The position numbers were made by a program, and so were the translations under genes. Of a DNA stretch of 64,000 nt, positions 2,122 to 62,504 are shown piece by piece. The DNA comes from Naegleria gruberi (taxonomy: Eukaryota), in the NCBI GenBank assembly GCA_000004985.1, contig GG738853.1. One strand, 5' to 3'. The stretch's first letter is position 1; each line of letters starts with the position of its first letter. Under the pieces are notes generated by a model. That model did no database searches, was not told the origin of the DNA, and worked only from the letters and a program-made list of their open reading frames with translations.

Positions 2122-3775
2122 CTATTCCTTCTTCTTTCTTCTGACGTATTTTTTTATGAATCTTCCCATGTAGTCTAAGTGTTCAATGTAAATGTCACCC
2201 ATTTTGTTGTTTTCAATTGAATTGTTGGTGAGCTTGACGAGAAGATCATCTTGTGAGAAACCACGAGCTGGATAATTGGCAAATAAGATGCCAAATTCTG
2301 AGGCATTGGAAATGGAACAGGAAACTATCTTTTTCACTCTTCCTTCATTTTGAACTCGAATATTGTCAGATATATTTTGATTAAAATTGCAATGACTGAT
2401 GAGAGTTGACAGAGATCGATCACATATACATAATCCACTCAGTCCACATCCTAATATATCAACCTCTTTGAGTTTGTGGAGGGAAGATTCACCACTCACT
2501 CTAATACCATCGAGTTTACAACTAACAATACGAGATCTAGTGACTGTACACTGAGATCTGTCCATTAACCATATTCCCATATCTCTACATTGTGAAATTA
2601 TGGATTCCATCATGATGAGAATACTCTTATTCATCAAAATTATTCCAGATCCATATTCTGAAGAAGATATTGTTACTCCTTTCAAAGTCAACCCACCATT
2701 ATCTAATTCCAAACAACTCACAACAGGTTTTTCCTCCTCTGATGCATACTTGTAGGTATGTGTTCGCACCCTGAATGTAATATTTGAAATGACACCTCCA
2801 TTAGCTTTGTAAACTAAACAACTTTCATTTTCGTCTGCATTCTCAATGACAATATTATTGGTTGAACCCATTATTTTGGTCTTTATCCTCTCCTCCTCAA
2901 TTTTCTTCTTCATCTCAGATCCAACTGCAACTGCATTTGTATTTTTCACACGACGAGATGATGCTGTCTTTCTCAATTCAGATTCACTCATTCTTGTAAC
3001 ATCATTGGCATTGGTCATTGCGTTACTGTCCATAGATGCTGTCTTTCTCAAATCCTTTTGAGCATTGACAGAAACTGCCTCCTCTTCTCCATCATGACCC
3101 TCCTCATTGTACTGTTTTGAAAGAATTTGCTTCATGGCTTCGGTTTTTTGTTTAATTTCCAACTCTGACATGTATCCAACAAGTTGAATTGGTTTTTCAA
3201 TCCACAAATTTTCTCTATAAATTCCAGGATAAATCAAAATCTTTTCTCCTCCTCTTGCAGCATCAATGGCCGTTTGAATGCTTCCAAATATTTGACAATT
3301 TCTGTGTTGTTTTTCCAAAGGTGTTGGATCTTGAGCAGATTTTACTACCAGATGATATCCAGATTGTTCAATCAGTGCAATTAACTAAATATATTTAACA
3401 ACATTATTTTAAATATTATTCAATATTAAATGGAGATGAATTAACACATACCCATTCATTGGCATCTTGTTCCGAATTGGCTGCCAAATAATAAGTTCTC
3501 GTCTTGGTAACAATTTTTAAAGTGTGTCTCATTGAATTTGTCACTTCATTCGGATCACATCTCAAAATTGGACAACCCAAAATATTGATGGCTCCTGTGT
3601 AGTGTTTATCATCAATTGTTTTATAATACAACAGATTGGTTTTCAGTAGGATGAATATACGTGATTTCCAGTTTTTTACTTTTTCTCCGAGTTTGTTGAG
3701 TGAGCCAACTTTTAGTCCTTGTTTGAGAGCAAGTTGTGCTGGGAGACGAAAGTTACTGGCCGAGCGTGATGACAT
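2122..3775 (-). CDS. PH-domain protein fused to right-handed parallel beta-helix (PbH1-like) repeats, two exons: 3775..3442 and 3384..2122
   Basis: Exon 1 starts at ATG 3775-3773 (MSSRSASNFRL...) and encodes a pleckstrin-homology-like fold (...KSRIFILLKTNLLYYK...HTLKIVTKTRTYYLAANSEQDANEW). The GTATGT donor follows the AATGAATGG (N-E-W) codons. The acceptor is ...ATTTAG, so the apparent stop TAG in the downstream ORF is the 3' splice site. Exon 2 continues in phase 0 (LIALIEQSGYHLVVKSAQDPTPLEKQHRNCQIFGSIQTAIDAARGGEKILIYPG...) into a repetitive beta-helix-like body with NNSIENN-type repeats. The ORF-track start of the 2122..3318 ORF is a TTG. An extra upstream exon is possible. Confidence 0.65.
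3385..3441 (-). other. spliceosomal intron (57 nt, GTATGT...TAG) of the PH/beta-helix gene
   Basis: On the minus strand the sequence reads GTATGTGTTAATTCATC...AAATATATTTAG. Both exons stay in frame (phase 0). The intron is AT-rich and contains in-frame stops if read through. Confidence 0.6.
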
Positions 3776-11536: not shown

Positions 11537-12721
11537 GGTTGTTTAAAGGAATACGAAGGAAAAGGAGTGGTTTTAGAAAACTTGTGCTTTAAACGCTTGA
11601 AAATTGATGATGATCGAGAATGGAGTAGTGGAGGGTTAACAAAATTTTAGATATTGATGGATATCTAATACAAATATTATCTGCTGTTCAATATAAATTA
11701 AAGAGAGTGGTATGTTTTTGTTGATATATGCCGATAATCCCAGTACTGTGGTGCTGTCTCGTCGTCCAGTAGTAGTACTGTGATGATGATGATTACGGTG
11801 GAAAAAGGGAAAGGAAAAAAACAACAACTTGAATGATATATTAGCAAACGGAAAATGTCCAAGTTGAATTGTTGTTGAGCAATAGCCAATGTTGAGCAAG
11901 TAAGTAGTAGTAGTAGATGTGTATATGTTTTGAGAAGAACAACTACAATAACCCACTCTTCAATTAGCCAATAGAGGTAGAAGAAGATTTTGCGAGAGGT
12001 GAGGTGAACGGGAAAGTTTTAAATTTTTTTTAATAATAGAAATCATCATTTGTTTTTCCCTCCAAATTTTCTGAATGTGGAAGTGCTTGGTTGTTTACAG
12101 AGATGGGAAAAAATTGTGCCACTCACATTTGTGGTGTGATTTGAGCGCTAGTATTGAAATAAGGATATTGTTTGCTATTTTACTGCAAAGATTTTTGTTC
12201 TTATTAATTCTATTCTCATCTCTCTCTTATTATTGTTGGTATTTAATAATGGACAGTATAGGTGGCCAAAGTAATTGTGTCTGAGGAGAGTGAACAGGTA
12301 GTTATCTGTTCCTTGTTATTAAACAAGTCATTAATCATTGGCTGGAAAGGATGACTTGTGTGAAATATTGAAAATATTAGGATGAGACCTAATAAGGTTG
12401 TGTGGAAAGTTAGTTTGTGAGGACTGTAGATGGTGGTTGTTGCATCAACACATCAACAGAATTGTGCTTTCCATAGGCTGCTTGAAAGTCCTTTTTGCAT
12501 TTGTCAATAATAATTTGGAGATCCAATCGAAAGGGAAGAAAGCAATTGAACGCGTTATGCATCAAATTGGATCCACTCAACTGTTTACAAAACGTAACGG
12601 TTGCGACTTGTTTGTCATAGTTGCTGTGACGGAGCACTTAAAAATGCCAAGGCTCAAAAACCAATCTAAAAAAAAGTAACAACAACAAACACTAGGATTA
12701 TCAATCTAAAATACAACAGAA

Positions 12722-22033: not shown

Positions 22034-23470
22034 ATGTCTCGTTCATATGGTAAACTGTTGGTTATTAACAGTGTCTTGTCATTTCTACTTGTATTCATTT
22101 TGACAGAATTCTGTCATGCCTTGCCAAAAATCAGAGGTTTCAAACAACAATCAAATTCTATTGTAAGACCTTGGTCACAAACGTTTGGAGATTATCGTTT
22201 CTCGAACTTGGTCAATTTCACTCTATCCCATTCTGATTGGTCAACTGAACTTGGTGGCTCAATTGACGAAAACAGTGTAGCCTTTGCTTCTCTTACTAAC
22301 AACAAGGAAGGTTACCTGTACATGATAATTGACTATCCATATACCAATCTGAATTCTACCTTCATCAAATTAGATGCCACCAGTGGTAAAATTGTCCAAA
22401 CTTTAGTTAACATTATTCCACAAGATTCTCAACCAGTCATTATAGAAATTGCAGCACTTTTGGATTCGAATGGAAACTATTACGTAATTAGAAAAAGCAA
22501 AAACGATCACAATGGAGTACTTTTAATGAAAATATCAACAAGTAATTTCCAGGTGCTAACAATTTCAATTTCCACAAGTTTCTTCACTGGAATGGTCATT
22601 TCAGAAAGGAATAATTTGCTAATTGTCCATGGAAATGAATTCGTTTCTGCTTTCAATTTGGATACTTTGAAAACGGTATGGACAACCCAATTGAAAAAGG
22701 ATGATACAATCTCAGAGTCAACCATTGTCCTCGTTGAGAATGAATTCAACGATGGAATTGACATTGTGTACTGTTCTTTCAGAAGTTTCGTATTCAGAAT
22801 TAGAGCAAGAGACGGAGCTGTATTGTCAACAATGGATGTGCACGATGACAGATACTTTGTTGAGATATATCTTTTGCAAATTAGTTATAGTGGAATTCCT
22901 GGTTTAATTGGAGTTCAGTTTGGTTCATATTTCATGTCAATTGAAACAACCACACAAACTTTAGGTCCTAGAACTAAATTGGTATCATTAGAATATTGTA
23001 GTCCTCCAATGTCCACACAAATCAAGAGTGGAGAATCAGAATTCCATTTTGAAACTGTTTTTACCTGTTCCAACATTTCATCTTACATGCAATGGACATT
23101 TGGTTCCAATTATTTGTTAAATTACAAAACTCTCGCTCATCACCAGGGAAATGGAAGAATTGTAATTGAAAATCCCAAATTGAAATATGAATTGGATGTT
23201 GGAAGAGGGCAGGAATCTCATCTTCTTCCAACAAATTCATTGGATTCGTCTGGGTTGACTATTTTGGTTGGATCCAATTCTCAAGAATTTCCACAACCAT
23301 TCAAGTATGATCTTTCAAGAAATGGCATTTCAAAGGTTCAACTTTCGAATAGGAAGAGTGGTGTTTTGAATTCGAAATTTTTGACCTATACAGCAAGTAA
23401 TTCTAGAATGTATGTCTGTAACAATAATGAGAAGAAAAACTATTGCTACTCATCATTGATTCAACAATAA
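22034..23470 (+). CDS. secreted hypothetical protein with N-terminal signal peptide (possible beta-propeller)
   Basis: ATG at 22034. The hydrophobic N-terminus MSRSYGKLLVINSVLSFLLVFILTEFCHA fits a signal peptide. It is a 478-aa single ORF. No confident domain. Segments such as LLIVHGNEFVSAFNLDTLKTVWTTQL are reminiscent of propeller blades. Confidence 0.5.
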   Translation: MSRSYGKLLVINSVLSFLLVFILTEFCHALPKIRGFKQQSNSIVRPWSQTFGDYRFSNLVNFTLSHSDWSTELGGSIDENSVAFASLTNNKEGYLYMIIDYPYTNLNSTFIKLDATSGKIVQTLVNIIPQDSQPVIIEIAALLDSNGNYYVIRKSKNDHNGVLLMKISTSNFQVLTISISTSFFTGMVISERNNLLIVHGNEFVSAFNLDTLKTVWTTQLKKDDTISESTIVLVENEFNDGIDIVYCSFRSFVFRIRARDGAVLSTMDVHDDRYFVEIYLLQISYSGIPGLIGVQFGSYFMSIETTTQTLGPRTKLVSLEYCSPPMSTQIKSGESEFHFETVFTCSNISSYMQWTFGSNYLLNYKTLAHHQGNGRIVIENPKLKYELDVGRGQESHLLPTNSLDSSGLTILVGSNSQEFPQPFKYDLSRNGISKVQLSNRKSGVLNSKFLTYTASNSRMYVCNNNEKKNYCYSSLIQQ

Positions 23471-23595
23471 ATTTGGTATTCCACACAAAAAAGAATTTAT
23501 TCGAAAGATTTTAAATAAAAAATGTGTCATCTTTGAATTATTCGAAAGTAGGAGTTCATCATATTCCGAAATATATTGAGTTTCTAACTAAAAAA

Positions 23596-25020
23596 ATGAG
23601 CAAGATTTTCAAACTCATAATAGCATGCACAACATTATTGGTGTTTAGTTTCGTTTTCTTTCGTCTACTGACCAAGTCACCAATTAATTCAGATAATAAC
23701 ATTTTCGATAGAAATTCCAATACAAAACAAGAAACACCCACCATTCCACACAAGAACAACCTACCAAGAGTCGTAATAGTCCTGGGAACAAGACCAGAGG
23801 CCATCAAATGTGCCCCACTAATCTCACACCTCAAATCAAACTATTCCTCCGAATTGGAATTGATTGTTCTAAGTACTGGCCAGCACAGTGAAATTCTGAA
23901 ACAAACATTGGCAGTATTTGATCAACATGTGGACATTGATTTGGAATTAATGGAACCCAATCAAAGTATTTCCTCATTCTTTACACTTGCTTATCAAAGG
24001 ATTAGTTTAGAATTTGAGAGACAGGGACCTATTTCTATAGTGTTGGTTCAGGGTGATACGACCACATCTCTTGCTGCTGCCCTTGCTGCCAGTTATTTAA
24101 AGATACCTGTTGGACATGTAGAAGCTGGATTGAGATCGTACGATTTCAATAGTCCATTTCCAGAAGAATTGAATTGTAAAATGATTGATTCATTTGCTAG
24201 ACTCTTGTTTGCTCCAACTGATTTCTCTAAGGCAGCTCTTGTTAGAGAAGGTATTTGTCCACAGCATGTGCATGTCACTGGTAATACTGGCATTGATTCG
24301 TTCTATTCCTTAATGTCTGTTCCACCAAAGATAATTCCAGAATTTCTGAAAAATATCAAAAGTTTTAAAGGCAGCAATGATCATGCAGCAGAAACATTGG
24401 CAATTGAGTCACATCATCGAATAGTAATTCTTGTTACAATGCACAGAAGAGAAAACATTCCACACTTTAAGGAAATGTGTAATGCCATCAAAACAATTTC
24501 CAATACATTTGGAAAGAATGTCATGATCATTCTACCTGTACATCCAAATCCCAATGCTAAGAGTGTAGTTAATGAAGTGTTGTCAGCATTGGATAACGTA
24601 CAACTCGTTGATCCAATTGCCTATGACATCTTTCCACATGTGATTAGTGAAGCTGACATTATTGTTACTGACTCTGGAGGTATTCAGGAGGAATCAGCAA
24701 GTATTGGAAAGCCAGTTATTCTCATGAGAGATACGACTGAGAGACCAGAGGGAATTTATATTGGAACTATTAAAAAGATTGGAGTCAATTATTTTCACAT
24801 TGTGAAAGCCATGACAGATGCAATTAAGGATTCACAAAATTCGAAACAAATTCTTTCGAAACACATATTTGGAGATGGGAAAGCTAGCATGAGAATTTCA
24901 AAAATTGTTCGTGATTTTGTCACCTCCAAATTACCAGATTCTATAGAATGTTCTACTCAATTCATCCAAGATTCAATTGCAGAAAGTGTTTACTCTCAAA
25001 ATTTTACCATTCGAAAGTAG
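23596..25020 (+). CDS. bacterial-type (WecB/MnaA-like) UDP-N-acetylglucosamine 2-epimerase with N-terminal transmembrane anchor
   Basis: The track ORF starts at GTG 23524 and the first ATG is 23596 (MSKIFKLIIACTTLLVFSFVFFRLL..., one hydrophobic helix). The remainder aligns along its whole length with E. coli WecB. Matching blocks are VLGTRPEAIKCAPL, VLVQGDTTTSLAAALAASYLKIPVGHVEAGLRSYD...PFPEE, VTGNTGIDS, HRREN, PVHPNPN, TDSGGIQEE and KPVILMRDTTERPEG. Confidence 0.85.
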   Translation: MSKIFKLIIACTTLLVFSFVFFRLLTKSPINSDNNIFDRNSNTKQETPTIPHKNNLPRVVIVLGTRPEAIKCAPLISHLKSNYSSELELIVLSTGQHSEILKQTLAVFDQHVDIDLELMEPNQSISSFFTLAYQRISLEFERQGPISIVLVQGDTTTSLAAALAASYLKIPVGHVEAGLRSYDFNSPFPEELNCKMIDSFARLLFAPTDFSKAALVREGICPQHVHVTGNTGIDSFYSLMSVPPKIIPEFLKNIKSFKGSNDHAAETLAIESHHRIVILVTMHRRENIPHFKEMCNAIKTISNTFGKNVMIILPVHPNPNAKSVVNEVLSALDNVQLVDPIAYDIFPHVISEADIIVTDSGGIQEESASIGKPVILMRDTTERPEGIYIGTIKKIGVNYFHIVKAMTDAIKDSQNSKQILSKHIFGDGKASMRISKIVRDFVTSKLPDSIECSTQFIQDSIAESVYSQNFTIRK

Positions 25021-25220
25021 AAAGAAGGAATTATTGGAAAGATCAACAGATAACTCCCCATACAAGAGTTATTCTCATTACCAAGAACAGAACTTGAAGA
25101 GATGGATTCCCCTCTCGATCAACTCTATACTTTCTGAAAAATCAAACAAATTAGTTGAAATGAATCATGTCCATCATACATGTTTATTACAACTTTCTTT
25201 AAGATATTTGTGAAACTGAG

Positions 25221-26252
25221 TTATTCGAAAGAAAAGTCAATATCATGATAATTTCCTGCCTTTTTAAACTCAAAATAAGTTGGCATGGCCTTTCGTTTCA
25301 TGGTGAGTGCATTCCACATGGAAATTTGATTTTCCTTCTTTTTAAATCTGAAAATAATTTGATATTCTTTAGAATTGATTTGAATCTCATCTTTTCCATA
25401 AAACAATCGAATACGTTTCATATCTCTAATATCAACAACCTTTTCCAATTCTCTCTCATAATTGCCCAATTCTGCATCTGAATTAATGTTAACTTTTAAG
25501 AAGTGTTGATAAATTATCTCATTACTATTTGGTTTGAATAAAAGCAATTCACCCAATTTGGAAATTGCAATCGATCCATTCTCAATCAATTGATTCCCAA
25601 TCTCCTTACTGTTAATAATTTCAAATTCCAACCCAACCAAAAGATAATCGAACATGTACAATTCTATTGATTGCAGAAATTCAGTATTCTTCTTCACATC
25701 CTTCAGAAATGTACTCTGTTCTGAGAAAAACACAATTTTTTCAGTTAATTTCTTTAAGAGCAAATCAGTTTTCTCTTTTTGATCAGTATCCTCGAGATAT
25801 TTCTGTAAATCTCGATATAAAAGGATATATCTGGATAATCTTGAAAGGAAATAAAAATTAATCATCATTTCATTAGTAAATATCTTGTTATAAATTCCTT
25901 TCCAAACATTGCAATCAAAGGTAATGGAATTGACAATGAAAGTTTCCATAAACAAATCATTATCCAAAAATTTAGACAAGTTTCCAACACACAATTCGAA
26001 ACATGCCTCATAATTTGATGAATCCACAACAACATTCAGCCTATCGTAATATTCCTTCATCACCCAATAAATTTGATCAAGTTTTTTATATTGAAATCTC
26101 AAGTAAATTTGCTGATCCAATGTAAAACAATCCAAATTATTAGTCAACCAGAAATTAAACATTTCGGAAGTTTCTTTAAATTTGCTTATGGTTGTTTGAT
26201 CGGTTTGGATAATTTCTTGCAAGACACGACATGCTCTTTCAATGTTATTCAT
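25221..26252 (-). CDS. hypothetical protein (343 aa), no confident domain
   Basis: ATG at 26252-26250 and an uninterrupted ORF. There is weak resemblance to a DH-like helical bundle followed by a PH-like C-terminus (...IRLFYGKDEIQINSKEYQIIFRFKKKENQISMWNALTMKRK...). I would not call it a domain. Confidence 0.4.
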   Translation of the reverse strand: MNNIERACRVLQEIIQTDQTTISKFKETSEMFNFWLTNNLDCFTLDQQIYLRFQYKKLDQIYWVMKEYYDRLNVVVDSSNYEACFELCVGNLSKFLDNDLFMETFIVNSITFDCNVWKGIYNKIFTNEMMINFYFLSRLSRYILLYRDLQKYLEDTDQKEKTDLLLKKLTEKIVFFSEQSTFLKDVKKNTEFLQSIELYMFDYLLVGLEFEIINSKEIGNQLIENGSIAISKLGELLLFKPNSNEIIYQHFLKVNINSDAELGNYERELEKVVDIRDMKRIRLFYGKDEIQINSKEYQIIFRFKKKENQISMWNALTMKRKAMPTYFEFKKAGNYHDIDFSFE

Positions 26253-26925: not shown

Positions 26926-27714
26926 ATGCAAGCATTCATTAACATGGCCACTCTCTGGTTGGACTTATCCTTTCTCTTTGGATCCATAGCCTACACTGCA
27001 GGTTGCATTGTGTTGATACTAAAGGTTTCGTATTTTGTCGAAGGAGTTATCCTATTCATTATCGGTTCTGCTTTTTTCATGGTTGGACCAATCGGAAAAA
27101 CACTTGTGGATTTGATGAATTTGGTTCGATATTACATGTGGAAGAGGAGAAGAAGGAAATTCACACAACTTATTGATGATTATCAAAGTGTGAATAGAAA
27201 TCGCTTGGTTGACTATGAAGATTCGAATATTTGGGAAAGACCAAAAGATGTACCATCTATTGGAATGATTAGTTTGGAATTATTTAATGATTTTACTCAA
27301 TTGATTGGAGGAGTTGCATTGACTATTGGATCGAGTCTATATATGGTAAAACCAGAACCTTTATATTTAGTTTATACTGCAGTTTCGAATTGGTTAGGTG
27401 GCTCTTTATTATTCCTTTTAGTTGCATGCATTCAATTTGGAATGAAACAATATGATATTTTAAAGAACCATTCCACCAATCAAAAACTGTCATGCTCATG
27501 TTGCATTCATCATTCTTTTGACATTTCGTCCTATGTGTTCAATATCATTGCTTGTTTGCTATTCTCAATGGGTTCGACATGTTTTTATTTTGTAAATAAC
27601 AGATCTTTAGAAATTAGTGGTGAAGTAATTTGGTCGATGGGATGTGTGTCATGTGTCATGGCAATTGCATGTAGTAGAGTTGTTTGGATTGAGAATTGTT
27701 TTACAAAAGCATAA
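26926..27714 (+). CDS. multi-pass membrane protein (hypothetical)
   Basis: ATG at 26926 and 262 aa. There are at least five hydrophobic helices (e.g. LWLDLSFLFGSIAYTAGCIVLIL, VILFIIGSAFFMVGPIG, LIGGVALTIGSSLYMV, LGGSLLFLLVACIQFG, IIACLLFSMGSTCFYFV) and a basic loop KRRRRK. Confidence 0.5.
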   Translation: MQAFINMATLWLDLSFLFGSIAYTAGCIVLILKVSYFVEGVILFIIGSAFFMVGPIGKTLVDLMNLVRYYMWKRRRRKFTQLIDDYQSVNRNRLVDYEDSNIWERPKDVPSIGMISLELFNDFTQLIGGVALTIGSSLYMVKPEPLYLVYTAVSNWLGGSLLFLLVACIQFGMKQYDILKNHSTNQKLSCSCCIHHSFDISSYVFNIIACLLFSMGSTCFYFVNNRSLEISGEVIWSMGCVSCVMAIACSRVVWIENCFTKA

Positions 27715-60902: not shown

Positions 60903-62504
60903 ATGCAACAAGTTAATTCATCATTAACAATGAAGTTAATTACGTTCATTGCCATATTTTTAATGATCATTAACATGGCAACATGTGTATCATTAAATAA
61001 TCATCATCCTGTCACTTCTCATGTCAATAATGACATTAATTATCATCAAGTAATTTTTGACTATATGAAAGATCGTTCTAATGAAAATTTTAAATATCAA
61101 CTTTTAAATTCGGTTGACATTCCAAACACTGCTAAATTTTATGTATTTAACATGACAAGTGTCAAATGGTTAACTAACAAGGAAGTGTCACGTAGTGAGT
61201 GGTATCATTTTGTTGAAATTGTTGTTCCCTATCAAATAACTCAAACTAAACAAGCACTCATGTTAATTGCAGGTGGATCATCAAATTCACAAGTTCCAAC
61301 ACTTGACAAGGAATTAATTCAAATGGGTGTTTTAACAAAATCAATTGTTTGTACCATTCATCAAATTCCAAATCAACCACTCACTTTCTTATCAGATCCA
61401 GAAAAGAAGAGTCGAGTTGAAGATGCAATTTTAGCATTTGCTTGGGCAAGATTTATGAATTTAACACAGGAAAATGATGAATTGAAAAGTAATACTGAAT
61501 GGATTCCAAGACTTCCAATGGTCAAGTCAACTCTATTTGCTATGGATTTAGTTCAAGAATATTTATTGAAAAATCTTAATATTAAGGTTGAAGATTTTCA
61601 TGTTGCTGGTGCTTCAAAGAGAGGTTGGACGACAAATCTTGTTGGTGTTGTTGATCAGAGAGTTAAGAGTATTATTCCTATTGTTATTCCAATTTGGAAA
61701 ACAAGAGAAGTATTGGGTATGTTTTTTTTTCTTTTTATTGAACTAGTTGTATATTGAACTATGAAATTCTTATTGACTGGATTGTAACTTATTGTAACTT
61801 ATTGTAAAAATATAGAACATACATATAATTCACTTTGTTTTTGGCCTGAAGCAATGGGTGATTATGTAAGGGAAGGAATTATCAATCGATTGAATTCAAA
61901 GGAATTTAAATTATTAGCAGATGTTATTGATCCATTCGAATATAATGATATTCTTGCTGGTAAATTTAAATATTTTGTTAATGCAGTTGGTGATCAATTC
62001 TTTGTACCTGAATTGAGTCAATTCTCCTATCCATTTATTAAGGGAAGTGATGAACGTAAACATTTGAGATATATTCCAAATGCAGATCACTCAATGGCTG
62101 GTTCTGATGCTGAACTTACAATTTTGGCCTATTACTATTGTTTAATTAACAATATTTCACTTCCAATTTATAATTTCAATTTGAAATCTGATTCATTATT
62201 GACTGTCAATATTGTAAAGAATATTTTACCAATTAAGAGTATTTTATTATGGGAAGCTTTTGCTCCAAATAGAGATTTTAGACAACAAACTATTGGAAAT
62301 GTTTGGAAATCAAGAGATATTTCTACTAATTACAATGCTCAAACTTGTCAAATTAGTGTTAATTTAAATAATCCACCAAGTGGTCAATTTTATGCTGCAT
62401 TTGTTGAATTGACATTTGATCTTGGAGGTGCTATCTATCTCAAATTCACAACTTCAGTTTATATTCTTCCAAATGTTTTACCATGTCATTATAGTGACAT
62501 TTAG
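60903..62504 (+). CDS. PhoPQ-activated pathogenicity-related (PqaA) family protein with signal peptide, two exons: 60903..61716 and 61816..62504
   Basis: ATG at 60903. The N-terminus is hydrophobic (LITFIAIFLMIINMATCVSL). The family motif ...VAGASKRGWTTNLVGVVDQRVKSIIPIV... is present. Exon 1 ends phase 1 at a GTATGT donor (61717). The acceptor is TATAG at 61815, with an alternative in-phase acceptor GAAG at 61851. Exon 2 is in frame with track ORF 61854..62504. Confidence 0.7.
61717..61815 (+). other. intron (99 nt, GTATGT...TAG) with an alternative in-phase acceptor 36 nt downstream (61851)
   Basis: Reading through gives a stop after MFFFLFIELVVY. The intron contains a tandem attgtaactt duplication. 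Confidence 0.55.

Follow-up and report, generated by a model that had tools for sequence, protein, structure and literature searches.

Non-hydrolysing UDP-N-acetylglucosamine (UDP-GlcNAc) 2-epimerases of the WecB/MnaA family have been described from bacteria (Escherichia coli, 1F6D; Vibrio cholerae, 3DZC; Neisseria meningitidis SacA, 6VLB; MnaA of Bacillus, Staphylococcus and Paenibacillus, 3BEO, 5ENZ and 9CM8), where they are soluble cytoplasmic proteins of about 370–390 amino acids. NeuC and GNE, which are distantly related to them in fold, are hydrolysing and cytosolic, and GNE is also fused to a kinase. Polymers that contain N-acetylmannosamine (ManNAc) are regarded as bacterial and, to our knowledge, ManNAc is known in eukaryotes only as a cytosolic sialic-acid precursor made by GNE. 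Here we describe a WecB/MnaA-family gene of Naegleria gruberi, NAEGRDRAFT_64134, which lies at positions 23596–25020 on the + strand of a 64,000-nucleotide stretch of contig GG738853.1 (the whole of which we call the window). We consider it probable, at roughly 0.7, that the gene encodes a membrane-anchored WecB-type epimerase of a eukaryotic clade, that it was truncated from an epimerase–glycosyltransferase (GT) fusion, that its open reading frame (ORF) is still under selection and that the enzyme has a lumenal role.

Gene structure, relatives and the region past the stop codon

The features of the locus are as follows; residue numbers are those of the encoded protein.

23596–25020, + strand: coding sequence (CDS) NAEGRDRAFT_64134 / XP_002680419.1, intronless, 474 codons and a TAG stop; WecB/MnaA-family UDP-GlcNAc 2-epimerase
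23596–23673, + strand: N-terminal tail (MSK) and hydrophobic signal-anchor helix (residues 1–26)
23674–23766, + strand: polar stem rich in Ser, Asn, Thr and Pro (residues 27–57)
23767–24921, + strand: catalytic domain of two Rossmann-like halves (residues 58–442), aligned to E. coli WecB residues 2–370
24175–24177, + strand: codon 194, TGT (Cys), at the site of a substrate-binding Arg (Arg139 of Paenibacillus alvei MnaA)
24256–24258, + strand: codon 221 (Cys), clade-specific, in the motif 'REG.C', invariant in the core clade
24922–25017, + strand: C-terminal tail (residues 443–474) with C452 and the motif Q458..I461 A462..V465, not in bacterial enzymes
25018–25083, + strand: TAG and decayed linker relic, 22 codons in frame, with a second stop (TAA) at 25051, from tblastn read-through
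23471–23595, + strand: 5' intergenic region between the upstream gene (22034–23470) and the start, with no other ATG in the frame of the domain

The ORF spans 23524–25020, and position 23596 holds its sole ATG before the conserved domain. Because the WecB-homologous domain begins at residue 58 and the second Met is residue 119, this is the only start that gives a complete enzyme, and the hydrophobic N-terminus therefore belongs to the CDS. A preliminary description of the locus had named a wrongly placed start as a possible objection to an anchored enzyme; the objection falls, and the helix is moreover shared by the relatives of the protein. No intron is required for the 474-codon gene, whose TAG stop occupies 25018–25020. 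The encoded protein matches, at 100% identity, N. gruberi XP_002680419.1 (EFC47675.1, NAEGRDRAFT_64134, UniProt D2V5M6), and the automatic UniProt name of this entry, 'UDP-N-acetylglucosamine 2-epimerase (non-hydrolyzing)', gives the family correctly.

The nearest non-self matches were proteins of the rotifer Adineta steineri (51–55% identity), which have a hydrophobic N-terminus and a tail reading 'I.C.T.F.QDSIA..VYS'. When 1.84 billion cluster representatives were searched exhaustively with a profile, the eight top-ranking sequences were all anchored or fusion proteins. Three of the eight could be identified, from Rotaria, Capsaspora owczarzaki (XP_004363305.1) and Willaertia magna (KAL9646693.1); Willaertia, like Naegleria, is a heterolobosean. 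Among 147 cluster representatives bearing the GTRPE motif, 15 were extended at the N-terminus by 28 residues or more that included a hydrophobic segment, and in another 3 the epimerase domain was internal. Tritrichomonas foetus and several further sequences supplied other anchored members, and the gene for one of these further sequences has DENN-domain genes beside it on a eukaryotic scaffold.

The N. gruberi protein has the anchor and variable stem before GTRPE, together with C221 and the tail 'C....Q..IA..V(Y/F)', that mark this anchored clade. Since the anchor, stem, C221 and Cys tail are common to the Adineta, Capsaspora and Willaertia proteins and to several eukaryote-like sequences, they appear to predate Naegleria. 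In a neighbour-joining tree (155 sequences, 357 columns, 200 bootstraps), N. gruberi fell inside a seven-member core clade with four fusion proteins and two stand-alone proteins (92.5% bootstrap), and Willaertia (46% identity) and Capsaspora (45%) fell outside it.

The fusion proteins are those of Adineta, Rotaria and Brachionus and the sequences P0123, P0133, P0134 and P0284. In each, the epimerase tail is followed by a linker and then by a domain of about 450 residues with the motifs DDDC and GED(F/W)(H/Q)L. This domain matched GT2 weakly (~1e-5) in six of six members, matched no solved structure by sequence and had only 14 relatives in the databases, none of them from Naegleria. P0284 (968 amino acids, intronless) is encoded on a 181-kb contig (GCA_016850925.1 / JAESGV010000085.1), and the best named relative of the adjoining copine gene is in the heterolobosean Acrasis kona (41%).

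The N. gruberi ORF has no linker or C-terminal GT2-like domain and ends after the tail. In tblastn searches, the fusion proteins aligned in frame through the TAG (25018) and the TAA (25051) up to 25083, with the Naegleria translation 'TIRK*KEGIIGKINR*LPIQELFSLP' set against 'TTRKDKLLNRTKPRERLTMSEIFSLP' in Brachionus. We scored the 22 codons in a register fixed in advance (in frame, ungapped, from the stop). Against a profile of the six discovery sequences they scored 14.0, and 25 of the 127,870 six-frame positions of the window scored as high; against a profile of three independent sequences they scored 13.0, a value reached at 11 of the 127,870 positions.

A second copy of the locus, L017, is present on European Nucleotide Archive metagenome contig ERZ929261 k127_365272 (1781 bp), which is 97.1% identical to window positions 23333–25117 and also covers the last 138 bp of the upstream gene. 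In this copy tblastn also passes through the stop, the second stop is changed from TAA to AAA, and the relic reads 'KEGIIGKIKRKLPMQELFLLP' and scores 19.0, nearer to the ancestral linker. The TAG is common to the window and L017, and the truncation therefore predates the split of the two strains.

Past 25083 we found no similarity to the fusion proteins. At the Willaertia, Capsaspora and P0136 loci, tblastn alignments ended before the stop and left no relic. A hmmsearch with a hidden Markov model of the linker did not report the locus among whole six-frame translations, six very long targets that are ill-suited to a relic of 22 residues. Because N. gruberi groups with the fusion proteins in the core clade and the linker match continues in frame after the stop, the gene appears to be a 3'-truncated epimerase–GT fusion, of which the front half remains. 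The preliminary description had missed this relationship.

A continuation in frame +2 (ORF 24977–25213, 'ESRKKELLERS') was also considered; it overlaps the better in-frame match and had no other support, and we dropped it.

Several other observations concern the fusion genes themselves. The contig that carries P0284 has eukaryotic genes (copine, LIM, PH, CHRD) and is present both in NCBI and in JGI/IMG, with gene calls of prokaryotic style; it may be of eukaryotic origin and have ended up in a metagenome bin. The Adineta steineri fusion gene (CAJNOI010000156.1) is annotated as two genes (697 and 259 amino acids) with an in-frame TGA at 12092–12094, where homologues read 'VVGGSW'. Read through, it would give a fusion of about 960 amino acids, and the TGA reflects either pseudogenisation of this allele or an error of sequencing. 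In the Brachionus calyciflorus protein CAF1007398.1, the epimerase half looks degenerate (GTRPEAIK to DSNYEAFA, HVEAGLR to HIQNGEI, with much of the C-terminal half gone) and the GT domain is intact; either the gene model is poor or the protein is a pseudo-enzyme. In two of six GT-domain sequences, the C-terminal ~50 matched residues weakly matched PF02350 positions 47–94 (best E = 0.003), possibly because a further Rossmann-like piece follows the GT2-like core.

Two epimerase–GT fusions lie beyond the core clade. P0197 (778 amino acids) is anchored and groups with Tritrichomonas, and P0163 (893 amino acids) is without an anchor and has a downstream domain that opens with a motif like that of the rotifer GT domains, 'TAVISAYRRP...IWILFFASP'. 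These two proteins suggest that WecB–GT fusions arose or spread more than once.

Anchor, stem, tail and topology

Residues 4–22 of the N. gruberi protein are hydrophobic (Kyte–Doolittle 2.39), and AlphaFold models a helix at residues 2–25 with a predicted local distance difference test (pLDDT) score of about 87. L017 differs from the window in this region by a single amino-acid change, T26F. The stem has pLDDT below 50 at residues 29–42 and no modelled secondary structure through residue 57, and its length and sequence vary within the clade. The C-terminal tail is modelled as a helix at 450–466 (pLDDT 72–77) and is common to Adineta, P0133, P0134, P0284, P0136, P0137, Capsaspora and Willaertia. 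In our alignment of the clade, C221, C452, Q458, I461, A462 and V465 are invariant. Across the homologues, 13 have a Cys both in the C221 column and in the tail, 3 only in the C221 column, 8 only in the tail and 131 in neither, a co-occurrence that is confounded by shared ancestry. Through a putative C221–C452 disulfide, the tail could be fastened to the core.

The protein thus appears to be built like a Golgi type II protein, with a three-residue tail, an anchor helix, a disordered polar stem, a catalytic domain and an extra Cys-bearing C-terminal helix. Most clade members have at least as many Lys and Arg residues on the N-side flank of the anchor as on the C-side (6 versus 4 in the sequence unk460, 3 versus 1 in Capsaspora), and the hydrophobic segments of the homologues are 19–21 residues long. 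The domains fused to the rotifer epimerases have a Cys-rich insert and many N-x-S/T sites. On the basis of the tail, anchor and stem layout, the N-flank charge of the homologues, the co-occurring Cys pair and the Cys- and sequon-rich fused domains, we infer a type II topology with the catalytic domain in the lumen.

This topology is the weakest link of the proposed mechanism, because the Naegleria anchor itself is ambiguous in its charge balance and has a short uncharged core. The N-terminus might instead be a cleaved signal peptide, releasing a soluble secreted or lysosomal enzyme, or a reverse anchor that leaves the epimerase facing the cytosol, where UDP-GlcNAc is synthesised. The uncharged stretch of only about 16 residues would fit either arrangement, as would the balanced flanks (K3 and K6 on the N-side, R23 and K27 on the C-side), to which the positive-inside rule gives an ambiguous answer. 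We nevertheless think both arrangements rather unlikely. The corresponding segments of the homologues are longer and their N-flanks more positive, no small-x-small cleavage motif could be read off the sequence after the helix, and both the conserved Cys pair and the abundance of Cys and sequons in the fused GT domains speak for an enzyme that is membrane-bound and lumenal. The suggestion that the protein resides in the secretory pathway, made when the locus was first described, is plausible. N. gruberi possesses a Golgi, which is unstacked (PMC5963838).

Active site, selection and origin

The motifs GHVEAGLR, MHRRE, DSGGIQEE and MRDTTERPE are all found in the protein, and the V. cholerae and E. 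coli WecB proteins were matched with E ~1e-77 in end-to-end alignments, in agreement with the likeness to E. coli WecB first noted for the locus. Pfam Epimerase_2 (PF02350) matched residues 84–438 with E = 1.2e-89 (301 bits against a cutoff of 30.6; profile positions 6–346 of 347). The AlphaFold model, built from a 73-sequence alignment (pLDDT 89.1, predicted TM-score 0.85), has the two-Rossmann-like-domain (GT-B-like) fold. In a Foldseek search with this model, the top 46 matches were all UDP-GlcNAc 2-epimerases, led by NmSacA, MnaA and WecB, with target TM-scores of up to 0.91.

Residue roles were taken from P. alvei MnaA (PMC11464976, Table 4) and mapped through the alignment. The catalytic residues D95, E117, E131 and H213 of E. 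coli, or D99, E121, E135 and H208 of P. alvei (PMC11464976), are all retained, as D154, E176, E190 and H283. Of the seven residues that bind substrate in P. alvei (R13, K18, E135, R139, H208, S285 and E291; PMC11464976), six have equivalents in R66, K71, E190, H283, S360 and E366, and the equivalent of R139 is Cys194. The allosteric-site residues Q42, H43, Q/E45, Q69, R209 and H241 (PMC11464976) are all matched, by Q96, H97, E99, Q123, R284 and H316. Of 72 positions conserved in at least 90% of sequences, 71 are retained. The predicted active site of the WecB-type core is thus essentially complete. The codon-194 column has Arg in 154 of 155 homologues, and L017 has CGT (Arg) there; Cys194 of the reference therefore appears to be a strain-specific change or a sequencing error.

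The CDS (1422 nt) differs from L017 by 1.76% and has no indels. By comparison, divergence over the flanks ranges from 9.5 to 15%, with 11.2% in the 5' intergenic region, 9.5% in the post-stop relic, which is similar to non-coding flank, and 14.7%, including a 5-bp deletion, in the further 3' flank. Nei–Gojobori estimates between the window and L017 gave a synonymous divergence (dS) of 0.053, a nonsynonymous divergence (dN) of 0.0082 and a dN/dS of 0.15 (binomial test against neutrality, p = 7e-6). The shortened ORF has thus been maintained under purifying selection since the two strains split.

It is unlikely, in our view, that the ORF is a dying remnant whose epimerase half became useless with the loss of the transferase and has merely escaped disruption so far. 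The lost partner, the decaying linker, the change at an otherwise invariant substrate-binding residue (R194C) and the failure to find a Naegleria homologue of the GT domain would all be expected of such a remnant. However, its coding sequence is constrained and free of indels between flanks that have diverged and carry indels, the conserved positions are almost all intact, its terminal branch in the tree is not inflated, and L017 keeps Arg194. An anchored epimerase also exists as a stand-alone protein in Willaertia, in Capsaspora and at the P0136 locus, and no GT domain adjoins the epimerase gene at any of the three.

The gene was initially proposed to be a horizontal acquisition with later eukaryotic targeting. 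In its most direct form, a bacterial wecB would have been transferred straight into the Naegleria lineage and a signal anchor added there afterwards. The enzyme is indeed of bacterial type, with the best bacteria reaching about 43–44% identity across the domain, its eukaryotic distribution is patchy, and none of the matches was an orthologue from another Naegleria species. A direct transfer is nonetheless improbable. The nearest relatives are eukaryotic (51–59% identity) and already have the anchor, stem, C221 and Cys tail, the core clade has 92.5% bootstrap, the post-stop relic matches the linker of eukaryotic fusions and is lacking from the stand-alone relatives examined, and the composition of the gene is fully host-like. 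The initial proposal is borne out only in part. The anchor appears to be older than Naegleria, and bootstrap was 8% at the node that unites the clade with the nearest sequences outside it, so that the tree, while recovering the eukaryotic core clade, resolved no bacterial donor or sister.

The best-scoring bacterial homologue was P0006 (405 amino acids, from a Candidatus Scalinduaceae metagenome-assembled genome), which carries Cys in the C221 column and is extended at its C-terminus by a Cys-bearing stretch but is without an anchor; it does not group with the eukaryotic clade in the neighbour-joining tree. We rejected an origin from giant viruses because homologues on viral contigs were at most 34% identical, and the paper on the Naegleria giant virus mentions a WecB-like gene only within a viral sugar pathway. 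Two metagenome scans returned no close relative, only sequences of at most 43% identity. Between the window and the Willaertia locus or that of the P0284 fusion, we found no synteny beyond the epimerase gene.

It is very improbable that the enzyme is instead a hydrolysing NeuC/GNE-like epimerase producing free ManNAc for a pathway of the sialic-acid type. The fold superfamily is the same, and human GNE (4ZHT) was matched weakly (E = 6e-4). However, the NeuC equivalog TIGR03568 reached 71.5 bits against a cutoff of 235.9, whereas the NCBIfam wecB equivalog TIGR00236 scored 342 bits against a cutoff of 210 (positions 2–363 of 366). Moreover, the top structural matches are all non-hydrolysing, and the relatives are fused to glycosyltransferases, which need a nucleotide sugar. 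By every sequence and fold test applied, the protein is a predicted non-hydrolysing member of the WecB/MnaA family, and the original distinction from GNE holds.

Contamination of the assembly with bacterial DNA, which has nothing but the bacterial type of the family to recommend it, is refuted by the position of the gene within a 695,587-bp N. gruberi scaffold among eukaryotic genes (protein kinases, F-box, leucine-rich repeat, Dis3-like RNB, tetratricopeptide repeat and a 4313-amino-acid HECT ligase), by its host-like composition and by its independent recovery on L017 together with part of the upstream gene. The GC content (36.5%), the GC content at third codon positions (29.7%) and the codon usage of the gene are typical of its neighbours in the window, and its host-typical codon usage and third-position GC content indicate long residence in the Naegleria genome.

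On the 3' side, the neighbour is a convergent gene ending at 25221. The upstream gene (22034–23470, + strand), which ends 125 bp before the epimerase start, encodes a 478-amino-acid protein with a hydrophobic N-terminal segment and a faint beta-propeller match far under the family cutoff; its 3' end is kept in L017 with 1.45% divergence. At 26926–27714 (+ strand), 1.9 kb downstream of the epimerase gene, there is a gene for a 262-amino-acid multi-pass membrane protein with two YrhK-like domains (PF14145, E = 6.4e-20), a family that takes its name from a Bacillus protein. An ORF with a right-handed beta-helix or NosD-like region at 2122–3318 (– strand; PF13229, E = 3.2e-11) is also bacterial-looking. 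Two adjacent ORFs at 60903–61757 and 61854–62504 (+ strand) match positions 3–214 and 228–367 of PF10142 (E = 1.4e-56 and 8.3e-24), a bacterial-type family of PhoPQ-activated pathogenicity-related proteins, and are probably one gene split by an intron of about 96 bp or by a frameshift.

Possible role and comparison with known systems

On the reading that we favour, of an anchored epimerase of eukaryotic descent cut from a fusion, a nonsense codon would have ended the ancestral fusion just past the tail, leaving 22 linker codons in the 3' flank while the transferase domain disappeared. The catalytic domain would face the lumen of the endoplasmic reticulum or of the unstacked Golgi, and there the enzyme may interconvert imported UDP-GlcNAc and UDP-ManNAc and so supply a lumenal glycosyltransferase. 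The transferase supplied may originally have been the fused one, since lost from the Naegleria gene.

Several points weigh against this reading. In addition to the balanced flank charges and short uncharged core of the Naegleria anchor, neither the 64-kb window nor the Naegleria proteins yielded a homologue of the lost GT domain, and R194C, unless it is a sequencing error, could impair the enzyme of the reference strain. Bootstrap for the wider anchored clade of 12 members was only 55%, in a tree that was built by neighbour joining alone, and no N. fowleri or N. lovaniensis orthologue was among the protein-search matches. The equilibrium of the epimerase reaction also favours UDP-GlcNAc, and a consuming transferase is therefore needed.

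We would suggest only tentatively that the relatives belong to a eukaryotic lumenal UDP-ManNAc pathway, in which an anchored epimerase, ancestrally fused to a GT2-like transferase, serves ManNAc glycans in rotifers, Capsaspora and heteroloboseans, and of which N. gruberi keeps the working half after a recent loss of the transferase. Were this so, N. gruberi should have a second ManNAc-using transferase or another use for UDP-ManNAc. A conserved, selected and anchored WecB-type enzyme that is fused to a GT domain in rotifers and a protist would point to an unrecognised class of eukaryotic glycan, and to a new case of nucleotide-sugar conversion within the secretory pathway. The locus may also serve as a dated example of domain loss, in which the nonsense codon, the decaying linker and the constrained front half can be compared across two strains. 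Practical consequences are modest, as the gene is already in the databases under the right family name and was not seen in the pathogenic N. fowleri.

Literature searches with the gene identifiers and for WecB-type epimerases in Naegleria, Capsaspora and rotifers returned no description of the protein, its eukaryotic relatives or the fusion family. The fusion proteins are in the databases only as 'unnamed protein product' or under automatic names.

Compared with the bacterial WecB/MnaA enzymes, the Naegleria protein is of the same family and has the same two-domain fold, catalytic Asp/Glu/Glu/His, UDP-binding residues and allosteric residues. It differs in the added 57-residue anchor and stem and the 32-residue Cys-containing C-terminal helix, and the reference copy differs in R194C. 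The core group to which it belongs also has its own motifs, with GNTG(I/V)D in place of GNTVID, TMHRREN followed by a one-residue deletion, PVHPNPN, RPEG(I/V)Y and (I/L)FGDG.

The fusion proteins (Adineta steineri CAF1138864.1, Brachionus calyciflorus CAF1007398.1, P0133, P0134 and P0284) share the anchor, stem, epimerase subtype, C221 and Cys tail with Naegleria at 51–59% identity, and their linker is recognisable past the Naegleria stop. They carry the GT2-like domain of about 450 residues, whereas the Naegleria protein is without it and ends after 'TIRK'. Capsaspora XP_004363305.1 and Willaertia KAL9646693.1 have the anchor, WecB domain, C221 and Cys tail, as in Naegleria, and no adjoining GT gene. 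The anchored WecB-like protein of Tritrichomonas foetus (XP_068369464.1) has neither the tail nor C221 and groups elsewhere in the tree. These stand-alone anchored proteins are only 41–46% identical to that of Naegleria, are placed outside the core clade and retain motifs of bacterial type (TSHRRENLGEPL, PVHLNPN).

There is a parallel in design with the Golgi type II nucleotide-sugar interconversion enzymes of plants and animals, such as the UDP-GlcA 4-epimerases (GAE), UDP-xylose synthase (UXS) and the UDP-Xyl 4-epimerase (MUR4). These have a short cytosolic tail, a signal anchor, a stem and a lumenal catalytic domain, which converts an imported nucleotide sugar beside the transferases that use it. 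The Naegleria protein may share this logic, but the fold of those enzymes (short-chain dehydrogenase/reductase) and their chemistry are unrelated, and we found no description of a 2-epimerase of this design in the literature searched. New relative to the characterised members of the WecB/MnaA family are the membrane anchor, the stem, the Cys tail and the apparent descent from an epimerase–GT fusion.

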